Below are positions 4,758 through 22,698 of a stretch of DNA of 40,144 nucleotides, piece after piece; positions within the stretch are counted from its first letter, which is position 1, and each line of letters begins with the position of its first letter. The notes below the pieces were generated by a model. It made no database searches. It was not told where the DNA came from and was given only the letters and a program-made list of their open reading frames with translations. The stretch covers positions 1 through 40,144 of the forward strand of contig JAUWPF010000001.1 of the NCBI GenBank assembly GCA_030611745.1. The letters run 5' to 3'. Source of the stretch: Chloroflexota bacterium (GTDB lineage: Bacteria > Chloroflexota > Dehalococcoidia > Dehalococcoidales > JAUWPF01). The position numbers were made by a program, and so were the translations under genes.

Positions 4758-6101
4758 TTATAAGACTGGCAGATATCTCTTAAGCTCGTAATCGGTTACC
4801 TGAGTCCGGTACAGGTCCCACTCAATTTTCTTGTTTTTAATGAACGCATCGAAGACATGGTCGCCCAGAGCCTTACGTACTAGCTCACTCTTTGCTGTCA
4901 GTTGAAGCGCCTCCCAGAGGCTGGCAGGTAGAGTATCTATACCTCTTTTCTGCCTCTCCTCCTCGCTCATCTCATATACATTTTCTCCTACCGGCTCCGG
5001 GGCTTCATATCCCTTCTCAATTCCTTCCAGACCAGCCGCCAGCATAACACTGAAGGCAAGATAGGGATTGCAGGCAGGGTCAGGTGACCTGAACTCAATC
5101 CTGGTGGCATTTTCTTTACCTGGCCGGTACTCAGGAACACGAATGAGATCAGACCGGTTCCGTCTTGCCCAGGAAAGATAGACTGGTGCCTCATAGCCGG
5201 GAACCAGCCGCTTGTAGGAATTGACCCACTGGTTACAGACCAGGGTGATTTCAGGGGCATGCCTCAGCAGCCCGGCTATATAGTACCTGGCCTCTTGAGA
5301 GAGATGATACTCATCGCCTTTGTCGAAGAAGGCGTTGCGCTCACCTTTGAAAAGCGACTGGTGCACATGCATCCCACTGCCATTTATGCCGAAAACAGGT
5401 TTGGGCATAAAGGTAGCATAAACCTCGTGCTTCAAGGCGACTTGCTTGACCACCAGGCGGTAGGTCATCACGTTGTCGGCCATGGTCAGGGCATCGGTGT
5501 ACCTCATATCTATTTCGTGCTGGCTCTCAGCGACCTCGTGGTGGGAGTACTCAATGCCGATACCCATCTCCTCCAGGGTGAGCACCGTGTCTCTCCTCAG
5601 GTCGGTGGCCGCGTCAAGGGGGGTCATATCAAAGTAGCCTCCCTTGTCCAGTGGCTCAGTTCCTTTTGAGTCTCTAAAGTAGAAATACTCAAGCTCCGGC
5701 CCCACATAAAAGGTATAACCCATGTCGGCCACCCGTTTCAGATTTCTCTTTAACACATACCTGGGGTCGCCTTCAAAGGGTTCACCACCGGGCTTTAAGA
5801 CATCGCAGAACATTCTGGCCACGGCTTGCTCCCTCGGCCGCCAGGGAAGAAGTTGAAATGTATCCGGGTCAGGCAGCGCCACCATATCGCTTTCATCGAT
5901 GCGGGCAAAACCCTCGATAGATGAGCCATCAAACCCCATCCCCTCCTCCAGGGCACCTTCCAGTTCCTCCACGGTAATGGTAAAGCTCTTCAGGAAACCG
6001 AGGATATCAGTAAACCACAGCCCGATAAACCTTACATCACGCTCCTTCGCCATCTTGAGAACATATTCTTTGGCTTCTATGACTTCTTTGACTTTAGCCA
6101 T
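4758..6101 (-). CDS. glnA: glutamine synthetase, type I
   Basis: 447 aa with typical GSI motifs (FDGSSIEGF, MPKPVFGINGSGMHVHQSL, NPYLAF). Last gene of the amt-PII-glnA string. Confidence 0.95.
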   Translation of the reverse strand: MAKVKEVIEAKEYVLKMAKERDVRFIGLWFTDILGFLKSFTITVEELEGALEEGMGFDGSSIEGFARIDESDMVALPDPDTFQLLPWRPREQAVARMFCDVLKPGGEPFEGDPRYVLKRNLKRVADMGYTFYVGPELEYFYFRDSKGTEPLDKGGYFDMTPLDAATDLRRDTVLTLEEMGIGIEYSHHEVAESQHEIDMRYTDALTMADNVMTYRLVVKQVALKHEVYATFMPKPVFGINGSGMHVHQSLFKGERNAFFDKGDEYHLSQEARYYIAGLLRHAPEITLVCNQWVNSYKRLVPGYEAPVYLSWARRNRSDLIRVPEYRPGKENATRIEFRSPDPACNPYLAFSVMLAAGLEGIEKGYEAPEPVGENVYEMSEEERQKRGIDTLPASLWEALQLTAKSELVRKALGDHVFDAFIKNKKIEWDLYRTQVTDYELKRYLPVL

Positions 6102-6125
6102 CTCTTTGAACCTCCTTAAATTTGA

Positions 6126-6473
6126 CTAGAGTGCCTCTTCGCCTTTCTCCCCGGTTCTTACTCTAATCACGCTTTCCACAGGATAGATGAAAATCTTGCC
6201 ATCGCCGACCTCGCCGGTCCTGGCACTGGTCACAATCGTATCCACTATCTGATTTACCTCACTGTCCCGAGCCACAATTTCCAGCTTTATCTTTGGTGGG
6301 AACTCCACCTCGAATGTTGTGCCGCGAAACTGTTCCTTAAGCCCTTTCTGTTTCCCATGTCCCTCAACGGGAGTCTTTGTCATTCCAGGGTAGCCTGCTT
6401 TTTTTAAAGCATCCTTTACCTCCTCAAATTTTTCTATTCTGATTATGGCTTCTATCTTTTTCATTTTCTTCAC
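6126..6473 (-). CDS. glnK: PII nitrogen regulatory protein (GlnK/GlnB family)
   Basis: 115 aa. T-loop GHGKQKGLKEQFRGTTFEV and C-terminal GDGKIFIYPVESVIRVRTGE. Immediately downstream of amt, the classic amt-glnK pairing. The T-loop has Phe where E. coli has Tyr51. Confidence 0.93.
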   Translation of the reverse strand: MKKMKKIEAIIRIEKFEEVKDALKKAGYPGMTKTPVEGHGKQKGLKEQFRGTTFEVEFPPKIKLEIVARDSEVNQIVDTIVTSARTGEVGDGKIFIYPVESVIRVRTGEKGEEAL

Positions 6474-6496
6474 GCCCCCTTACTTATCCCTTCCGG

Positions 6497-7900
6497 TTAG
6501 CTTTTCCGCATGGTAACAAAGTCCGGGTAGGCTGGAGTGCCGTGCTCGGGTATATCCAGACCCTGAAGTTCCTCTTCGGGAGATATGCGGACACCGAAAG
6601 CCTTGTCCATTAGCTTAAAGGTTAGGTACCCCGTACCGAATGCCCAGGCAAAAACTACTATGCAGCTGATAAACTGGGCGAGTAGCTGTTCACCACCGCC
6701 GCCGTAGAGTAGTCCGGTAACATAAGGTGCCTCAACTGAATAATTACCGTAGGTGCCATCGGCAAAGAAACCAAGGCTCAGCAGTCCCCATAGCCCACAG
6801 GTACCATGCACACTTATGGCGCCCACCGGGTCGTCTATCCCCTTAGCTTCAAGGAACTTGACACTGGCATACATCAGCCCTCCGGCAATAAGACCGATTG
6901 CAATGGCCGCCCAGCCTTCTACCCAGGCACAGGGAGCAGTAATCGCAACCAGGCCTGCTACCGCGCCGTTTAAAGCCATACCGGTATCCCATTTCTTGGT
7001 TCTCCATTTAGCTATAAGTAATGCTGAGAGTGTTGCCGCTGCCGCTGCCAGGTTGGTATTGACAGCGATAACCGCTATTCTCAGGTGATGGGCGTTACAG
7101 GTGCTGCCGGAGTTAAAGCCAAACCAGCCAAACCACAGGATGAAGACCCCCAGGGCAGCCAGCACTATACTGTGGCCCGGGATTGCCCGCGGCTTGCCAT
7201 CTCTATCATACTTGCCAAACCTGGGTCCGAGAACCATTGCCCCGGCCAGGCCAACGAAGCCACCGATAGCATGGACCACCCCCGAACCGGCGAAGTCTAC
7301 AGCCCCCAATCCGAAGGGCAGTTGAGAGAGCCAGCCCCCTCCCCAGACCCAGTGACCATAGATGGGGTAAATAATGGCACTGACTACTATGCTGTAGATA
7401 AAATAAGCCTTGAACTTCAGCCGCTCGGCAACAGCTCCGGAGACGATGGTAGCGGCTGTAGCGCAGAAGACCAGCATCCAGAACATATTGAGATATTTAT
7501 CTACATCATAGTAATCACCGAGCATAAGCCAGCCTTCGGTGCCCCAGAGGCCGTGCCAATCACCACCCATCATTATGGCGTAACCGATGATGAAAAAGAC
7601 GAGCGAGCCAGTGACATAATCCATCAGATTCTTGGTCATCAAATTGGTGGCGTTCTTGGCCCGACAAAATCCCGCCTCCAGCATAGCAAAGCCAGGCTGC
7701 ATGAACATTACCAGGAAGGCGCAGACCAGTATCCACACATAATCTACCGCCGCATCCGCTGTCCCTCCTAGCCCAGTGGGGTCAGCAGCCAGAGCTATAC
7801 TGCCTCTCATTGCTGCCCACGCCAGCCATACCAGGCAGACGAGGCTGAGGGTTAATCCTACTCTTACTACTATCCTCATCACATTGCTTCTCAGATTCAT
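6497..7900 (-). CDS. amt: ammonium transporter (Amt family)
   Basis: 467 aa polytopic membrane protein with Amt signatures (DFAGSGVVHAIGGFVGLAGA, ISVHGTCGLWGLL). GGAGGA Shine-Dalgarno 6 nt upstream of the ATG. Confidence 0.95.
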   Translation of the reverse strand: MNLRSNVMRIVVRVGLTLSLVCLVWLAWAAMRGSIALAADPTGLGGTADAAVDYVWILVCAFLVMFMQPGFAMLEAGFCRAKNATNLMTKNLMDYVTGSLVFFIIGYAIMMGGDWHGLWGTEGWLMLGDYYDVDKYLNMFWMLVFCATAATIVSGAVAERLKFKAYFIYSIVVSAIIYPIYGHWVWGGGWLSQLPFGLGAVDFAGSGVVHAIGGFVGLAGAMVLGPRFGKYDRDGKPRAIPGHSIVLAALGVFILWFGWFGFNSGSTCNAHHLRIAVIAVNTNLAAAAATLSALLIAKWRTKKWDTGMALNGAVAGLVAITAPCAWVEGWAAIAIGLIAGGLMYASVKFLEAKGIDDPVGAISVHGTCGLWGLLSLGFFADGTYGNYSVEAPYVTGLLYGGGGEQLLAQFISCIVVFAWAFGTGYLTFKLMDKAFGVRISPEEELQGLDIPEHGTPAYPDFVTMRKS

Positions 7901-7984
7901 AGCTATCCTCCTCTCTAAAAGAAGGATAACAGCCAGATGTTTCCAACAGATTACAGCCAGATTAAATCTATGTTACGGAAATTA

Positions 7985-9502
7985 TTAATTAGAGATACCG
8001 GAGGAGAACCCGCCTCTCCACCTACCCATGGATTCAACCTCCCCCTCGGTGTTGAAGAAGTCCCTGAATATTTTGAAGTAGTAAAGCTCTTCCTTGGATG
8101 AAATTCCAACCCAATCAAATTGCCTTTTCGCTTTATCGAATTCAGCGTCCGATATTTCATCCCCGGCAACCTCTATGAGTAGCCGCTCTGAGCCGCAGCC
8201 AGCGGCAAATTCCATCTTGGTTCTCCACAGAACCTCATCGGGTAAGTAGCCAGTGAATGCCTGCCTCAGGAGCCACTTTTCAATATCATCCTTTCCGTTG
8301 TTTGATACCTTCAAGCCGGGGTCAACAGACATCGCATATTCCACGAGGTCTATATCAAGAAACGGCACTCTTCCCTCGATAGAGTGTGCCATGGTGGCGC
8401 GGTCTACCCTCTGGAGGTTCATATTGTGCAGCCCGGTGAGAATCCTCATTGATTCTCTATGGACCTCTGCCTCACTGGCAAATTGCTTGATGTAGTGATA
8501 GCCGGCAAATATCTCGTCCGCTCCCTCACCGGTAAGTATGACCTTCACGTAGTCCCCGGCCAGCCGCGAGACGAAGTAGGTTGGAATGGCGCTTCGCACC
8601 AGAGGAGGGTCGAAGGATTCGAGGTGGTATATAACATCGGGCAACACCTTGATTATCTCGTCTCGGTCGTATACATATTCGTGGTGCTCGGTGCCCAGGA
8701 AACCGGCAACCTTTCTGGCATATCCCAGGTCGGTAGCCCCTTCTACCCCCACAGAGAAGGTATCCAGGTGGTCAAAGTGCTGCTTCGATACGGCGCATAT
8801 TAAGCTGCTATCAATGCCACCACTGAGAAAGCAGCCTAACGGGACATCAGACATCCAGCGCTTCTGCACTGCTTTACTCAATCTCCGGTGTAGCCCCTCG
8901 GTTATCTTGTCTATATCCTCTTCCCAGCACTCGATCTCCGGGAGCCGGTAGTATTGAACCAGCCCTTCTTTCGAAGAGTAGTAGTGCCCGGGAAGGAACT
9001 CCTGAATGCTATCTACTACTCCCTCCAGTGCCTTAATTTCAGAGGCGAAGAAGAGGCAGCCATCCTTCTGCCCCTGATACAGGGGCTTTATCCCCAGTGG
9101 GTCTCGGGCAACAAAGATATCCCTTCCGTCGTAGAGCACAAAGGCAAACATCCCGTCCAGCCTTGAAACCGATTCTTCTCCCTCTTCCTCAAAGAGATGA
9201 AGGAGCACCTCGGTATCTGAATTGGTGCGGAAGTGGTGTTGAGAGAGTTCATCTTTCAGTGTCAGGTAGTTGTAAATCTCACCGTTGCATATAACACATT
9301 TTTGCCCATCCTCAGCGAATATCGGCTGCCTGCCGCCGGCCACATCTATTATGGAAAGCCTTCTTTGCCCCAGGGCAATATTGCTATCCACATAGGTATC
9401 ATGGTCATCCGGACCGCGGTGAGACAACCTATCCAGCATGGTATCCAGATAGGGCGCCCACTGGCCGGCATTATCTCCATAGATGGCAATAATTCCACAC
9501 AC
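7985..9502 (-). CDS. asnB: asparagine synthase (glutamine-hydrolysing)
   Basis: 505 aa. N-terminal Ntn amidotransferase start MCGIIAIYG and PP-loop motif FLSGGIDSSLI. Confidence 0.9.
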   Translation of the reverse strand: MCGIIAIYGDNAGQWAPYLDTMLDRLSHRGPDDHDTYVDSNIALGQRRLSIIDVAGGRQPIFAEDGQKCVICNGEIYNYLTLKDELSQHHFRTNSDTEVLLHLFEEEGEESVSRLDGMFAFVLYDGRDIFVARDPLGIKPLYQGQKDGCLFFASEIKALEGVVDSIQEFLPGHYYSSKEGLVQYYRLPEIECWEEDIDKITEGLHRRLSKAVQKRWMSDVPLGCFLSGGIDSSLICAVSKQHFDHLDTFSVGVEGATDLGYARKVAGFLGTEHHEYVYDRDEIIKVLPDVIYHLESFDPPLVRSAIPTYFVSRLAGDYVKVILTGEGADEIFAGYHYIKQFASEAEVHRESMRILTGLHNMNLQRVDRATMAHSIEGRVPFLDIDLVEYAMSVDPGLKVSNNGKDDIEKWLLRQAFTGYLPDEVLWRTKMEFAAGCGSERLLIEVAGDEISDAEFDKAKRQFDWVGISSKEELYYFKIFRDFFNTEGEVESMGRWRGGFSSGISN

Positions 9503-9504
9503 CG

Positions 9505-10176
9505 CTAATCCTCCTTTACAAATCTGTAGCCGATGTTCCGCACTGTTTCAATGAACGTATGGGTTGAGTCCTCAATCTTGCTCCTGAGTCTTCTGATGTG
9601 GACGTCTACTGTCCTGTCCCCACCGTAGTAGTCGTAGCCCCAGACCTTGTTGAGCAAAGCCTCACGGGTAAACACCTTTCCCTTGTTACCCACCAGAAAC
9701 TTGAGCAGTTCATACTCCCTGAAGGTTAACGCTACCAACCTGCCTTCTATGGACACCTCGCACCTGGAAAGGTCTATTACCAGGTCACCGCATTTAACTA
9801 GCTCGCTGCTGTCCCTGTTGCTTTCTCTGTACTGGAGCCGTTCTACCCTTAATGCTAGTTCCGTTACCTCGCAGGGCATGATGATGAAATCATCTACGCT
9901 CAGGTCGCCGTCAAGGCTATCAAGGCTCTCCTTATTGACCAGGGCGATAACAGGCAGATGCCTTTTTTCCTTGAGCCTTTGGGCCAGCTCCCGCCTGGAA
10001 TCAGGCGAGTGGCCGTCCATTTCCACCAGCACTAAATCATGGGCTTGCTCGGCAACCTGCCTGACCAGTTCCCCTCTATCAGAAGCAAGCGAGCAGGCAA
10101 AGCCCCTCTGGGTGAGCCCCGAGCGCAACTTCTTTACCGCTTCGTTTTCTCCAGCTATTATGAGTAGGCTAAACAA
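9505..10176 (-). CDS. OmpR/PhoB-family DNA-binding regulator with a degenerate (pseudo-)receiver domain
   Basis: 223 aa. The C-terminal winged helix is canonical (LTFREYELLKFLVGNKGKVFTREALLNKVWGYDYYGGDRTVDVHIRRLRSKI...GYRF). In the receiver, the conserved DD, phospho-Asp, Thr/Ser and Lys positions read AG (8-9), E52, V80 and M100. No histidine kinase gene is in the window. Confidence 0.85.
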   Translation of the reverse strand: MFSLLIIAGENEAVKKLRSGLTQRGFACSLASDRGELVRQVAEQAHDLVLVEMDGHSPDSRRELAQRLKEKRHLPVIALVNKESLDSLDGDLSVDDFIIMPCEVTELALRVERLQYRESNRDSSELVKCGDLVIDLSRCEVSIEGRLVALTFREYELLKFLVGNKGKVFTREALLNKVWGYDYYGGDRTVDVHIRRLRSKIEDSTHTFIETVRNIGYRFVKED

Positions 10177-10178
10177 GA

Positions 10179-11201
10179 TTAAATTATCTCCGTCCTGACT
10201 GCTTCTAGGTGCCAGAAGCTTTCCATCCGGCCAGAGTCAATCACGCCGCACAGGGCATGATTTATCACATCTATGCCGACCTCAGCCGCTGCTGCCACCG
10301 GATTCAGCCCGTCGCTGAGTATCATTCCCACCTTGTTCGGCGCTACCGGAAACTCACATAGCGGCTCACTTATTCCACCAAGCATGACCAGACCTCTTAC
10401 TAGTGTTGCCTGTAACTGGTCAATAACTGTCTCCGCTTGTGGTCGAGCTAAAGCCGGGAGCTCCCAGAAGCTAGCCAGCATCTTGCCCTCACCCCCTTTG
10501 ACTACTCTGCCCACACTGGTCATCCTGCTAGCAATAAATACTTCAGCCGGGTCCAGAGAGCAACCAGCATACTCAATGAGGTCAACAAAGCGTAAGGGCT
10601 TATGATGTCGAACCTGGAGTATACCTCCGAATTTAGAATCCACCGAGATGCCCGCCTTGAGCAAAGCAGCACTGACCACAATGCTGGATACCGTAGCCAG
10701 GCCTACCCTGCCCTGGGGCACAATCACTTCTCCCAATCTTTCCCCTTCATAAGCCACAGCTACCAGGTTACTGAGACAAAGGTTGACTTCAAATGCCTCC
10801 TTCATTACTCTTATAGCTTGGCGGAATTTTTCTCCAGGGAAAAGGGATATGCTGACAGGAATATTTCCACTACCCTTCTTCGAGTCAAAAGAGGTCTGGT
10901 AAGCCAGCATCTGGATTCTGGCAGTCACTGAACCTACCCGGTCACCAATCAGAGCACTGCCAAGTTCTTCAAACCCTGATGGGGTAATTAATCGGCCATC
11001 TCTTCTGCCCGCAGGGCAGGTAAGCCCTCGTTCATCCATCAGTTTGAGATGATACCTGACTGCCCTCTCTCCCAGGTCAATACCCAGGTTACCTAGCTGA
11101 CGGGAGATGACTCTGCCCCCCAGTGGCTGCGGAGAAGCGCTGAGAACCTTCAGAATCGCTATCACTTTCCTCTCTACACCTTGGGTTTCTTGACCTATCA
11201 T
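10179..11201 (-). CDS. NrpR-type nitrogen regulatory repressor homologue (wHTH plus one DUF128/NrpR domain)
   Basis: 340 aa. The N-terminal wHTH signature GERAVRYHLKLMDERGLT followed by GRLITPSGFEELGSALIGDRVGSV matches my recollection of methanogen NrpR. Nitrogen-gene context. Pfam PF01995 not run. Confidence 0.75.
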   Translation of the reverse strand: MIGQETQGVERKVIAILKVLSASPQPLGGRVISRQLGNLGIDLGERAVRYHLKLMDERGLTCPAGRRDGRLITPSGFEELGSALIGDRVGSVTARIQMLAYQTSFDSKKGSGNIPVSISLFPGEKFRQAIRVMKEAFEVNLCLSNLVAVAYEGERLGEVIVPQGRVGLATVSSIVVSAALLKAGISVDSKFGGILQVRHHKPLRFVDLIEYAGCSLDPAEVFIASRMTSVGRVVKGGEGKMLASFWELPALARPQAETVIDQLQATLVRGLVMLGGISEPLCEFPVAPNKVGMILSDGLNPVAAAAEVGIDVINHALCGVIDSGRMESFWHLEAVRTEII

Positions 11202-22344: not shown

Positions 22345-22417
22345 CAGGCGCGCCTCGCGGGGTGAGCGGTTACTGGTGTTCTATTAGGCGGCTTGCGGCA
22401 ACCGGTTACCGTAAACC

Positions 22418-22446
22418 AGTATATCATGCAATCTATATTGTGTCAA
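22418..22446 (-). promoter_or_regulatory. sigma-70-type promoter candidate for the nitrogen gene string
   Basis: Minus strand reads TTGACA (22446-22441), 17 nt, TATACT (22423-22418), about 75 nt upstream of the first ORF of the string. Confidence 0.5.
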
Positions 22447-22604
22447 CCCCTTTTCTTGGAGAATGTTGGTTAGCTATGGGAGGGTTAGCTGCGGGCAGAA
22501 AGACATCAGGCCGCTCCTTTTCGGGGTTGTGGTGGGGGGGTTCAGGGCTGGCAGGGGCAGGGCTGATTAAATGAAGTTTTTCTGAAAGGTTAAGAAGCAG
22601 ACCT

Positions 22605-22635
22605 GAAAGCAAAATCACCGCCACGGCTGCGGTGA
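22605..22635 (-). terminator. intrinsic terminator candidate downstream of rho
   Basis: 7-bp stem TCACCGC/GCGGTGA (22615-22621 and 22629-22635) with a 7-nt loop, followed on the minus strand by TTTTGCTTTC. Lies about 65 nt after the rho stop. Confidence 0.55.
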
Positions 22636-22698
22636 ATTTTGCCTTACCATCCGGGGAATTTTACCCTTGCCTGGGATGGAAGTCACCCCGGCAAATAT

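Follow-up and report, generated by a model that had tools for sequence, protein, structure and literature searches.

An orphan GlnR-like regulator with a degenerate receiver domain, and a predicted four-site box upstream of amt, in the nitrogen gene cluster of Dehalococcoidia

The stretch of DNA analysed here, which we call the window, comprises 40,144 nucleotides (nt) of contig JAUWPF010000001.1 from a Chloroflexota bacterium of the class Dehalococcoidia (assembly GCA_030611745.1), and all evidence presented on it is computational. On its minus strand lies a gene (9505..10176) with a TTG start, whose 223-residue product is identified by Pfam and NCBIfam, Protein Data Bank (PDB) and fold matches as an orphan GlnR-type regulator of the OmpR/PhoB family. 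Residues 1–120 (9817..10176) constitute a receiver-like domain and residues 125–223 (9508..9804) a winged-helix DNA-binding domain. The gene begins 2 nt from the stop of an upstream gene for an NrpR-type repressor of 340 residues (10179..11201; Pfam NRD1_2, 229.5 bits, and HTH_12), with which it is probably co-transcribed. It ends 2 nt from the start, at 9502, of asnB, which encodes a glutamine-hydrolysing asparagine synthase (7985..9502; NCBIfam asparagine synthase B, 593 bits, and Pfam). Farther along the same strand are the open reading frames of amt (6497–7900), the PII gene glnB/K (6126–6473) and glnA (4758–6101), separated by gaps of 23 and 24 nt. These three genes form the predicted target operon (4758..7900), of which amt is the first gene, and a predicted GlnR-type box (7939..7976) lies between asnB and amt.

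The C-terminal half of the regulator matches the Pfam model Trans_reg_C with 97.8 bits. The N-terminal half falls below the Pfam cut-offs of both Response_reg (19.1 bits, cut-off 30.2) and GlnR_1st, and a Pfam assignment of the receiver was therefore not adopted. Within NCBIfam, the protein matches generic OmpR-family models only, far under the equivalog cut-offs. HMMER alignment to the Mycobacterium tuberculosis protein RegX3 (PDB 2oqr) places A8 and G9 on the acidic E-D pair, E52 on the phospho-acceptor Asp, V80 on the Thr and M100 on the Lys. As a control, 48 canonical OmpR-family paralogues from eight genomes were aligned with MAFFT, and the same five columns hold Asp or Glu in 46, Asp in 46, Asp in all 48, Thr or Ser in 46 and Lys in all 48 sequences. 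An AlphaFold2 model of the regulator based on 69 homologues (predicted local distance difference test, 80.4; predicted template modelling score, 0.71) keeps the (βα)5 fold, and locates the five pocket residues just past β1 (residues 2–7) and at the C-terminal ends of β3 (48–52), β4 (76–81) and β5 (96–100). These alignments and the model agree with an earlier sequence-only reading of the window, which had proposed by hand alignment that all five phospho-relay residues are replaced. Its descriptions of a canonical winged-helix output domain and of 2-nt gaps to both neighbouring genes are likewise borne out by the Trans_reg_C match and the gene coordinates. With all five catalytic residues replaced and the modelled fold intact, the N-terminal domain is classed as a pseudo-receiver, or aspartate-less receiver.

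The composition of the family is consistent with this classification. Among the best 120 homologues, the acceptor position holds Glu in 83, Ala in 26 and Asp in 5, the first acidic position is Ala in 106, the Thr site is always Val, Ile, Leu or Ala, and the Lys is retained in just 50. The pocket is degenerate in all syntenic orthologues examined; across these proteins the acceptor residue is Asp, Ala, Glu, Asn, Ser, Tyr or Trp, and the Thr site is never Thr or Ser. Orthologues that also carry the box have Asp at the acceptor position in 12 of 26 cases and Ala in 7 of 26, the others having Glu, Asn, Ser or Tyr. The deeper branches of the tree, like GlnR, retain the acceptor Asp, which is lost in the subclade of the window's protein. 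Asp appears to be the older state at this position, and E52 looks like drift at a site whose catalytic role had already been lost. Four residues in β5 and α5 (D95, D96, E106 and R110) do not vary among the orthologues, and GlnR and the canonical paralogues keep or nearly keep them. In OmpR/PhoB receivers, positions of this type are part of the α4-β5-α5 dimer surface.

Canonical response regulators combine an intact DD-D-T/S-K quintet with a partner kinase, and neither was found here. We searched the whole assembly (0.97 Mb in 106 contigs, 87% complete) for HATPase_c and HisKA domains and obtained no match on the window's contig, which extends the earlier observation that no sensor kinase gene is nearby. 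Four HATPase_c matches occur in the assembly, and the gene of its single HisKA kinase, on contig C54, has that of a canonical OmpR-type regulator as its neighbour. Only two Trans_reg_C proteins are present in this genome. The regulator is an orphan without a cognate kinase, with a small doubt left by the 87% completeness of the assembly.

Sequence and fold comparisons point to actinobacterial GlnR as the closest characterized relative. The best PDB sequence matches are the GlnR proteins of Saccharopolyspora erythraea and M. tuberculosis (8hig/8hih; 127.6 and 119.2 bits), compared with 108.6 bits for RegX3, and the best Foldseek match of the AlphaFold2 model is 8hih_N, the GlnR of the M. tuberculosis activation complex. 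When the window's protein was compared with Mycobacterium, Saccharopolyspora and Actinosynnema genomes, the GlnR locus ranked first, ahead of 11–31 other OmpR-family genes (139.7 versus 111.5, 125.9 versus 112.6 and 111.7 versus 101.1 bits for GlnR and the runner-up). In the reverse search, a fragment of S. erythraea GlnR (SaeGlnR) taken from alignment output found the syntenic regulator as the best match in five Dehalococcoidia genomes, with margins of 22–46 bits. A full-length tree of 26 orthologues, 10 GlnRs and 49 paralogues places the orthologues together with GlnR and one GlnR-like paralogue from a mycobacterium, apart from the other 48 paralogues, with an ultrafast bootstrap of 100, a Shimodaira–Hasegawa approximate likelihood ratio test (SH-aLRT) value of 99 and recovery in 1000 of 1000 bootstrap trees. 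The DNA-binding domain alone, for which branches are short, groups the regulator with GlnR at an SH-aLRT value of 95, and thus the clade is not an artefact of degenerate receivers attracting each other.

The residues that contact DNA tell a similar story. In SaeGlnR, bases are read by R186, V190, R193 and R194 (PMC10235972), which correspond to R188, V192, R195 and R196 of the regulator. These residues are kept in 26, 26, 24 and 26 of the 26 orthologues, respectively, whereas 22, 32, 10 and 16 of the 48 paralogues match at the same four positions. Asn214 (N212 in GlnR) is also common to the regulator and GlnR, and is replaced by Gly in 42 of the 48 paralogues. On these sequence comparisons, the regulator is a homologue of actinobacterial GlnR, and not a mere analogue.

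Aligning the regulator-to-amt spacers of 16 loci revealed a common GTAAC-n6-TTAAC-n6-GTAAT-n6-GAAAC arrangement. Upstream of amt in the window, the minus strand carries GTAAC-n6-TTAAT-n6-GTAAT-n6-GAAAC at 7939–7976, composed of four 5-base-pair (bp) sites at an 11-bp phase (GTAAC at 7972–7976, TTAAT at 7961–7965, GTAAT at 7950–7954 and GAAAC at 7939–7943). This element agrees with the published GlnR element, a1 (gTnAc)-n6-b1 (GaAAC)-n6-a2-n6-b2, with GTAAC being the consensus in the co-crystal (PMC10235972). A 40-bp position weight matrix (PWM), trained on 11 other genomes with the window left out, scores 50.5 bits at 7937–7976 on the minus strand. The next best site in the genome reaches 14.4 bits, and the maxima in five Markov shuffles of the genome are 7.6–12.7 bits. 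Similarly, a crude rule that requires [GT]NAA[CT] to be repeated at exactly 11 bp, applied to both strands (1.94 Mb), yields a lone quadruple, the box at 7939–7976, alongside 25,810 single sites, 311 doubles and 4 triples.

The position of the box relative to the promoter is also distinctive. A −10 hexamer, TATCCT, with an extended TGn element (7923..7928, minus strand) begins exactly 10 nt 3′ of the last site, and one of the six bases at the −35 position agrees with TTGACA. The sites span roughly −60 to −23. Runs of three to six sites occur in 25 loci, on the regulator's strand and just 3′ of the regulator gene. The distance from the last site to a −10-like hexamer is exactly 10 nt in 27 of 27 boxes from these loci, and the hexamer is TAnnnT in 25 of the boxes and CATAAT or CATACT in the other two. 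In the GlnR transcription activation complex (GlnR-TAC), the b2 site is positioned downstream from the −35 element, and the 10-nt spacing (N10) observed here gives the same arrangement. The element at 7939–7976 is a predicted GlnR-type box, unique in the genome and in activator register at the amt-glnB-glnA promoter.

In Dehalococcoides-like genomes, the amt promoter carries six sites, and between the PII gene and glnA lies a second box, of four sites (L031:4247-4284 and L032:3982-4019). This glnA box reads GTAAC-n6-GAAAC-n6-GAAAT-n6-GAAAT/C in the two loci, 10 nt before a TAnACT hexamer. One promoter can serve amt, PII and glnA in the window, because glnA starts 24 nt after the PII gene. A genome scan with a two-site (dimer) PWM yielded 28 sites above threshold, compared with 19–23 in Markov-shuffled sequence. 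We claim no further targets because these counts equal those of shuffled sequence, and significance is confined to the four-site box. Two intergenic regions had been suggested in the sequence-only reading as candidate targets: the region at 7901–7984 indeed carries the box, and none was found at 22345–22698. The PWM and phased-site scans also detected no GlnR-type box at the carA leader or at the promoter that heads the gene string.

The regulator is not peculiar to this genome. A search of 5.8 billion proteins returned a large set at 60–86% identity, named only as response regulators of Dehalococcoidia or Chloroflexi. Within the class Dehalococcoidia, 162 of 201 genomes have a match at E ≤ 1e-30, and when 301 genomes from across the phylum were sampled, this class alone had matches at E ≤ 1e-42 (25 genomes, including the window's own). 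Our comparison of synteny and residues rests on the 30 best loci of the class, one of which is the window. In most of these, the order GXGXG (glutamate synthase, GOGAT)-(NrpR)-regulator-(AsnB)-Amt is conserved, the regulator gene lying 3′ of the gene for the GXGXG subunit of a split glutamate synthase and 5′ of amt or asnB. With the window set aside, 9 of the remaining 29 loci have a gene for NrpR between the GXGXG gene and the regulator gene. Two complete Dehalococcoides-like genomes (1.4–1.5 Mb) preserve the same order as hisF-gltB-GXGXG-regulator-amt-PII-glnA, and the amt-PII-glnA order of the window is identical in the two 12-kb Dehalococcoides-like loci. Such conservation in sequence comparisons indicates that the regulator belongs to a stable, class-wide family and is not a decaying single gene. 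The placement of asnB between the regulator gene and the box is a feature of the window's lineage and a few others (L005, L010 and L013); in most relatives the box follows directly 3′ of the regulator gene, without an intervening asnB.

We consider it likely that the regulator is a phosphorylation-independent, GlnR-like activator of amt-glnB-glnA that acts through the conserved four-repeat site, and hence a Dehalococcoidia counterpart of GlnR. The sequence-only reading had already ventured a nitrogen regulator that works without phosphorylation and is comparable with orphan GlnR, and reciprocal best hits, clade support and the amt box give this idea stronger support than it had when proposed. 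GlnR itself dimerises through its α4-β5-α5 surface without phosphorylation (PMC10704036; PMC12632262). Because of this precedent and the invariance of D95, D96, E106 and R110, we read the receiver-fold domain as a permanent module for dimerisation and for bridging to RNA polymerase, which would no longer serve as a phosphorylation switch. If this model is correct, protomers would bind head-to-tail, as two dimers, on the four phased GTAAC-like sites at 7939–7976. The promoter-proximal protomer would then be held 10 nt upstream of the −10 hexamer of a promoter that lacks a −35 element, and the regulator would activate amt-glnB-glnA transcription in the manner of the GlnR activation complex of actinobacteria. 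That the regulator binds this box, and activates rather than represses, is what we infer from the sequence and geometry of the site.

The resemblance to actinobacterial GlnR (as studied in Streptomyces coelicolor, M. tuberculosis, Amycolatopsis mediterranei and S. erythraea; 8HIG, 8HIH) extends to several features. Both proteins have a winged-helix output domain and are orphans of a kinase, and both have receivers without the acidic pair, Thr and Lys: the columns of A8, G9, V80 and M100 hold Thr, a variable residue, Val and Pro in GlnR. They are reciprocal best hits in one clade with the four base-reading residues and the N212/N214 Asn conserved, and they share an array of four GTAAC-like sites, phased at 11 bp, whose proximal member lies downstream of a missing −35 element, and predicted targets that include amt and, in relatives, glnA. 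In contrast to GlnR, the regulator comes from the Chloroflexota, its identity to GlnR is about 40–43% over about 180 residues with the first 40 or so residues outside the phmmer alignment, and its gene is situated within a nitrogen-assimilation cluster beside nrpR. Furthermore, one full four-site box was detected in its 1-Mb genome, whereas the GlnR regulon of actinomycetes comprises hundreds of genes.

Several observations weigh against the proposal that the regulator works as GlnR does. The match of the receiver to GlnR_1st (PF21695) reaches 24.1 bits, below the gathering score of 27, and the family members show weak matches to this model (52 of 69 at E ≤ 0.01, with a best value of 1.1e-7). 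A charge network of Asp-50, Arg-52 and Thr-9 is reported to be needed for GlnR dimerisation, Asp-50 being unphosphorylated (PMC10704036). This network is not kept in the regulator, which has E52, D54 and A8 in those columns, and the replacement of the acceptor Asp and its partners is the main departure from GlnR proper. Of the 26 diverged orthologues, 12 have Asp at the acceptor position, and Arg-52 is absent from the top residue counts. The tree paralogues come from only eight genomes of two phyla, and a receiver-only tree was discarded as a test of GlnR kinship when it failed to resolve and placed the window's protein in no well-supported set. A recognition helix almost identical to that of the regulator occurs in the paralogue encoded on C54 (TRTVDVHIRWLRQKIED against DRTVDVHIRRLRSKIED), and a six-site TTAAC/TTAAA array with an 11-bp phase and N10 spacing to a −10 hexamer is found just past the C54 kinase gene. 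Cross-binding by the C54 paralogue is conceivable, because it has this similar helix and an array of the same N10 geometry.

The last two points raise the question of whether the amt box is bound by another factor, such as the canonical PhoB/RegX3-like regulator of C54 or NrpR, with the pseudo-receiver protein having different targets or none. PhoP competes with GlnR at the amtB and glnA promoters in Streptomyces, and NrpR-domain genes are present in this genome and its relatives. However, the amt box always lies directly 3′ of the gene for the pseudo-receiver regulator and not of a PhoB-like gene, and three of its four sites begin with G, in contrast to the C54 array, in which every site starts with T. 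The Arg that reads guanine (R194 in GlnR, R196 here) is Trp in the PhoB-like paralogue. With regard to NrpR, a 96% complete genome (G132) keeps the regulator and the box and has no NrpR match, and the NrpR operators that have been described in methanogens are palindromes rather than direct repeats. We judge it unlikely that either factor is the natural occupant of the box. A second concern is that the regulator might bind the box as a repressor, blocking RNA polymerase over the −35 region and spacer of the amt promoter, which the sites at roughly −60 to −23 overlap. GlnR is known to activate or repress according to site position (PMC10235972), and the extended −10 element might allow the promoter to work without an activator. 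This possibility is improbable given the absence of a −35 match and the fixed N10 register in every box, which is the kind of requirement expected of a protein–polymerase contact and reproduces the activating GlnR-TAC geometry.

Other alternatives concern the receiver rather than the DNA. A conventional response regulator, phosphorylated on D54 or another residue by a distant or unassembled kinase, could be imagined when the assembly is incomplete and a minority of orthologues retain the acceptor Asp. Yet the acidic pair, Thr and Lys are all gone, all orthologues examined have a hydrophobic residue at the Thr site, the receiver scores far under the Response_reg cut-off, the sole HisKA kinase found pairs with the canonical regulator and the homologous GlnR operates without Asp phosphorylation (PMC10704036). 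D54, which the sequence-only reading had named as a residue that might rescue the acceptor function, is located in the β3-α3 loop and is not conserved (Asp in 79, Asn in 27 and Ala in 6 of the 120 close homologues). Phosphorylation in the conventional manner is thus highly improbable. The same reading had suggested that Glu52 is a built-in mimic of phosphorylation by which the receiver would be locked in an active state, and that PII or a small ligand might tune activity. At the acceptor position, Glu occurs more often than any other residue both in the 120 close homologues and in aspartate-less receivers generally (PMC12632262), and a PII gene lies within the target operon. However, a phosphomimetic role of Glu, although appealing as a hypothesis, has been disproved for some aspartate-less receivers and presumes Thr and Lys partners (PMC12632262), which are absent throughout this family. 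Since Asp, Ala, Glu, Asn, Ser or Tyr may stand at this position in orthologues that share the box and the synteny, the suggestion is not supported, and we give it little credence.

Two groups of known regulators are instructive for comparison with the GlnR-like activator proposed here. HP1043/HsrA of Helicobacter pylori (2hqr), ChxR of Chlamydia and RitR of streptococci are also full-length OmpR/PhoB proteins with a degenerate receiver and no kinase, they appear among the fold matches of the regulator, and they are thought or have been shown to be constitutive dimers on direct repeats (PMC12632262). Their PDB sequence matches are weaker than those of GlnR, and they were left out of the tree; in contrast to the regulator, they control other target genes with no link to nitrogen metabolism. 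Regulators of the PhoB/PhoP/RegX3 type, which include the C54 paralogue, belong to the same family, have a very similar recognition helix and use 11-bp direct repeats that replace the −35 element. They differ in having an intact quintet and an adjacent kinase, in forming a separate clade, in presumed sites that start with T (TTAAC) and in carrying Trp in place of the guanine-reading Arg. The regulator has cysteines at C28, C102 and C129, of which Cys28 shows no variation in the 69 close homologues and Cys129 almost none. A RitR-like redox switch that uses Cys28 and Cys129 was considered and rejected, since these cysteines are conserved in close homologues only and are lost in Dehalococcoides-like orthologues.

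Our guess is that the input of the regulator is its abundance, which would be set by a cascade from NrpR to the GlnR-type regulator. The nitrogen gene string that contains the regulator gene is about 18 kb long and is headed by a near-consensus promoter (22397..22446, minus strand), with TTGACA at 22441–22446, a 17-nt spacer and TATACT at 22418–22423. A 14-bp near-palindrome, GGTAACCGGTTGCC, spans 22397–22410 at the expected transcription start, and might be the operator of a repressor, perhaps NrpR. Abundance is preferred as the input because gaps of just 2 nt separate the regulator gene from its neighbours in a string with a strong promoter and an operator-like palindrome, and because nrpR is directly upstream. 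The case for it is weakened by gaps of 120–200 nt that precede the regulator gene in many orthologues and by the occurrence of the palindrome in a single copy. No second copy of GGTAACCGGTTGCC was found in any other promoter of the genome, and it was dismissed as a recurring NrpR operator, remaining a single operator-like element. By analogy with S. coelicolor GlnR, for which Ser/Thr phosphorylation and acetylation have been reported (PMC12632262), covalent modification of either kind may be an alternative input.

NrpR, known as a euryarchaeal nitrogen repressor that senses 2-oxoglutarate, shares the nitrogen theme with the regulator and adjoins it here and in the nine related loci noted above, and it possibly forms an upstream layer of the circuit. 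It is unlike the regulator in fold and family, with HTH_12 and NRD1_2 domains. A broader scenario, which we advance tentatively and regard as doubtful, is that GlnR-type control is an older circuit shared by Terrabacteria, and that in Dehalococcoidia it has been placed in series with an archaeal-type NrpR. In this arrangement NrpR would sense 2-oxoglutarate and gate the operon of the regulator, and the regulator would require no signal of its own, its mere synthesis being enough to turn on amt-glnB-glnA. If true, the natural changes from Asp to Glu, Ala or Asn would show that the mechanism of GlnR can do without its ‘essential’ Asp. The genome of about 1 Mb contains three NrpR-domain matches (C28:298-1014, C18:6-308 and window positions 10221–10937), and NrpR homologues are found away from the regulator in Dehalococcoides-like and Dehalogenimonas-like genomes.

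GlnR is described as actinobacterial (PMC10235972). Our literature search found no description of it outside Actinobacteria and no paper on nitrogen control in Dehalococcoidia, and in a full-text search no paper linked GlnR to Dehalococcoides, Dehalococcoidia, Dehalogenimonas or Chloroflexi/Chloroflexota. The homology reported here takes the OmpR-type GlnR family beyond Actinobacteria, to a class that contains the bioremediation organisms Dehalococcoides and Dehalogenimonas as well as many abundant marine and subsurface lineages. It leads to the concrete hypothesis of one regulator, one 38-bp site and one operon in the window's genome, with two promoters (amt and glnA) in Dehalococcoides-like genomes. 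The family also offers a natural experiment on a receiver after the loss of phosphorylation, wherein the acceptor residue drifts (Asp, Glu, Ala, Asn, Ser, Tyr) and the DD...E...R residues of β5 and α5 and the DNA-reading residues stay fixed.

Two further observations concern relatives of the regulator. The mycobacterial paralogue that falls in the GlnR clade (L142, from Mycobacterium sp. SMC-11, G201:C1:3515888-3516364) is a second, long-branched member that this genome has in addition to the true GlnR, and may be a GlnRII-like paralogue. On contig C54, the six phased sites occupy 7225–7300 (C54:7225-7300), directly after the only HisKA kinase gene of the genome, and TATGCT follows at a distance of exactly 10 nt. 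This array is probably a Pho-type box of the canonical PhoB/RegX3-like regulator. The gene that follows it, which is cut by the contig end, starts MHIENRWFLLPLTGLILVDVVLGGC, a sequence resembling a lipoprotein signal.

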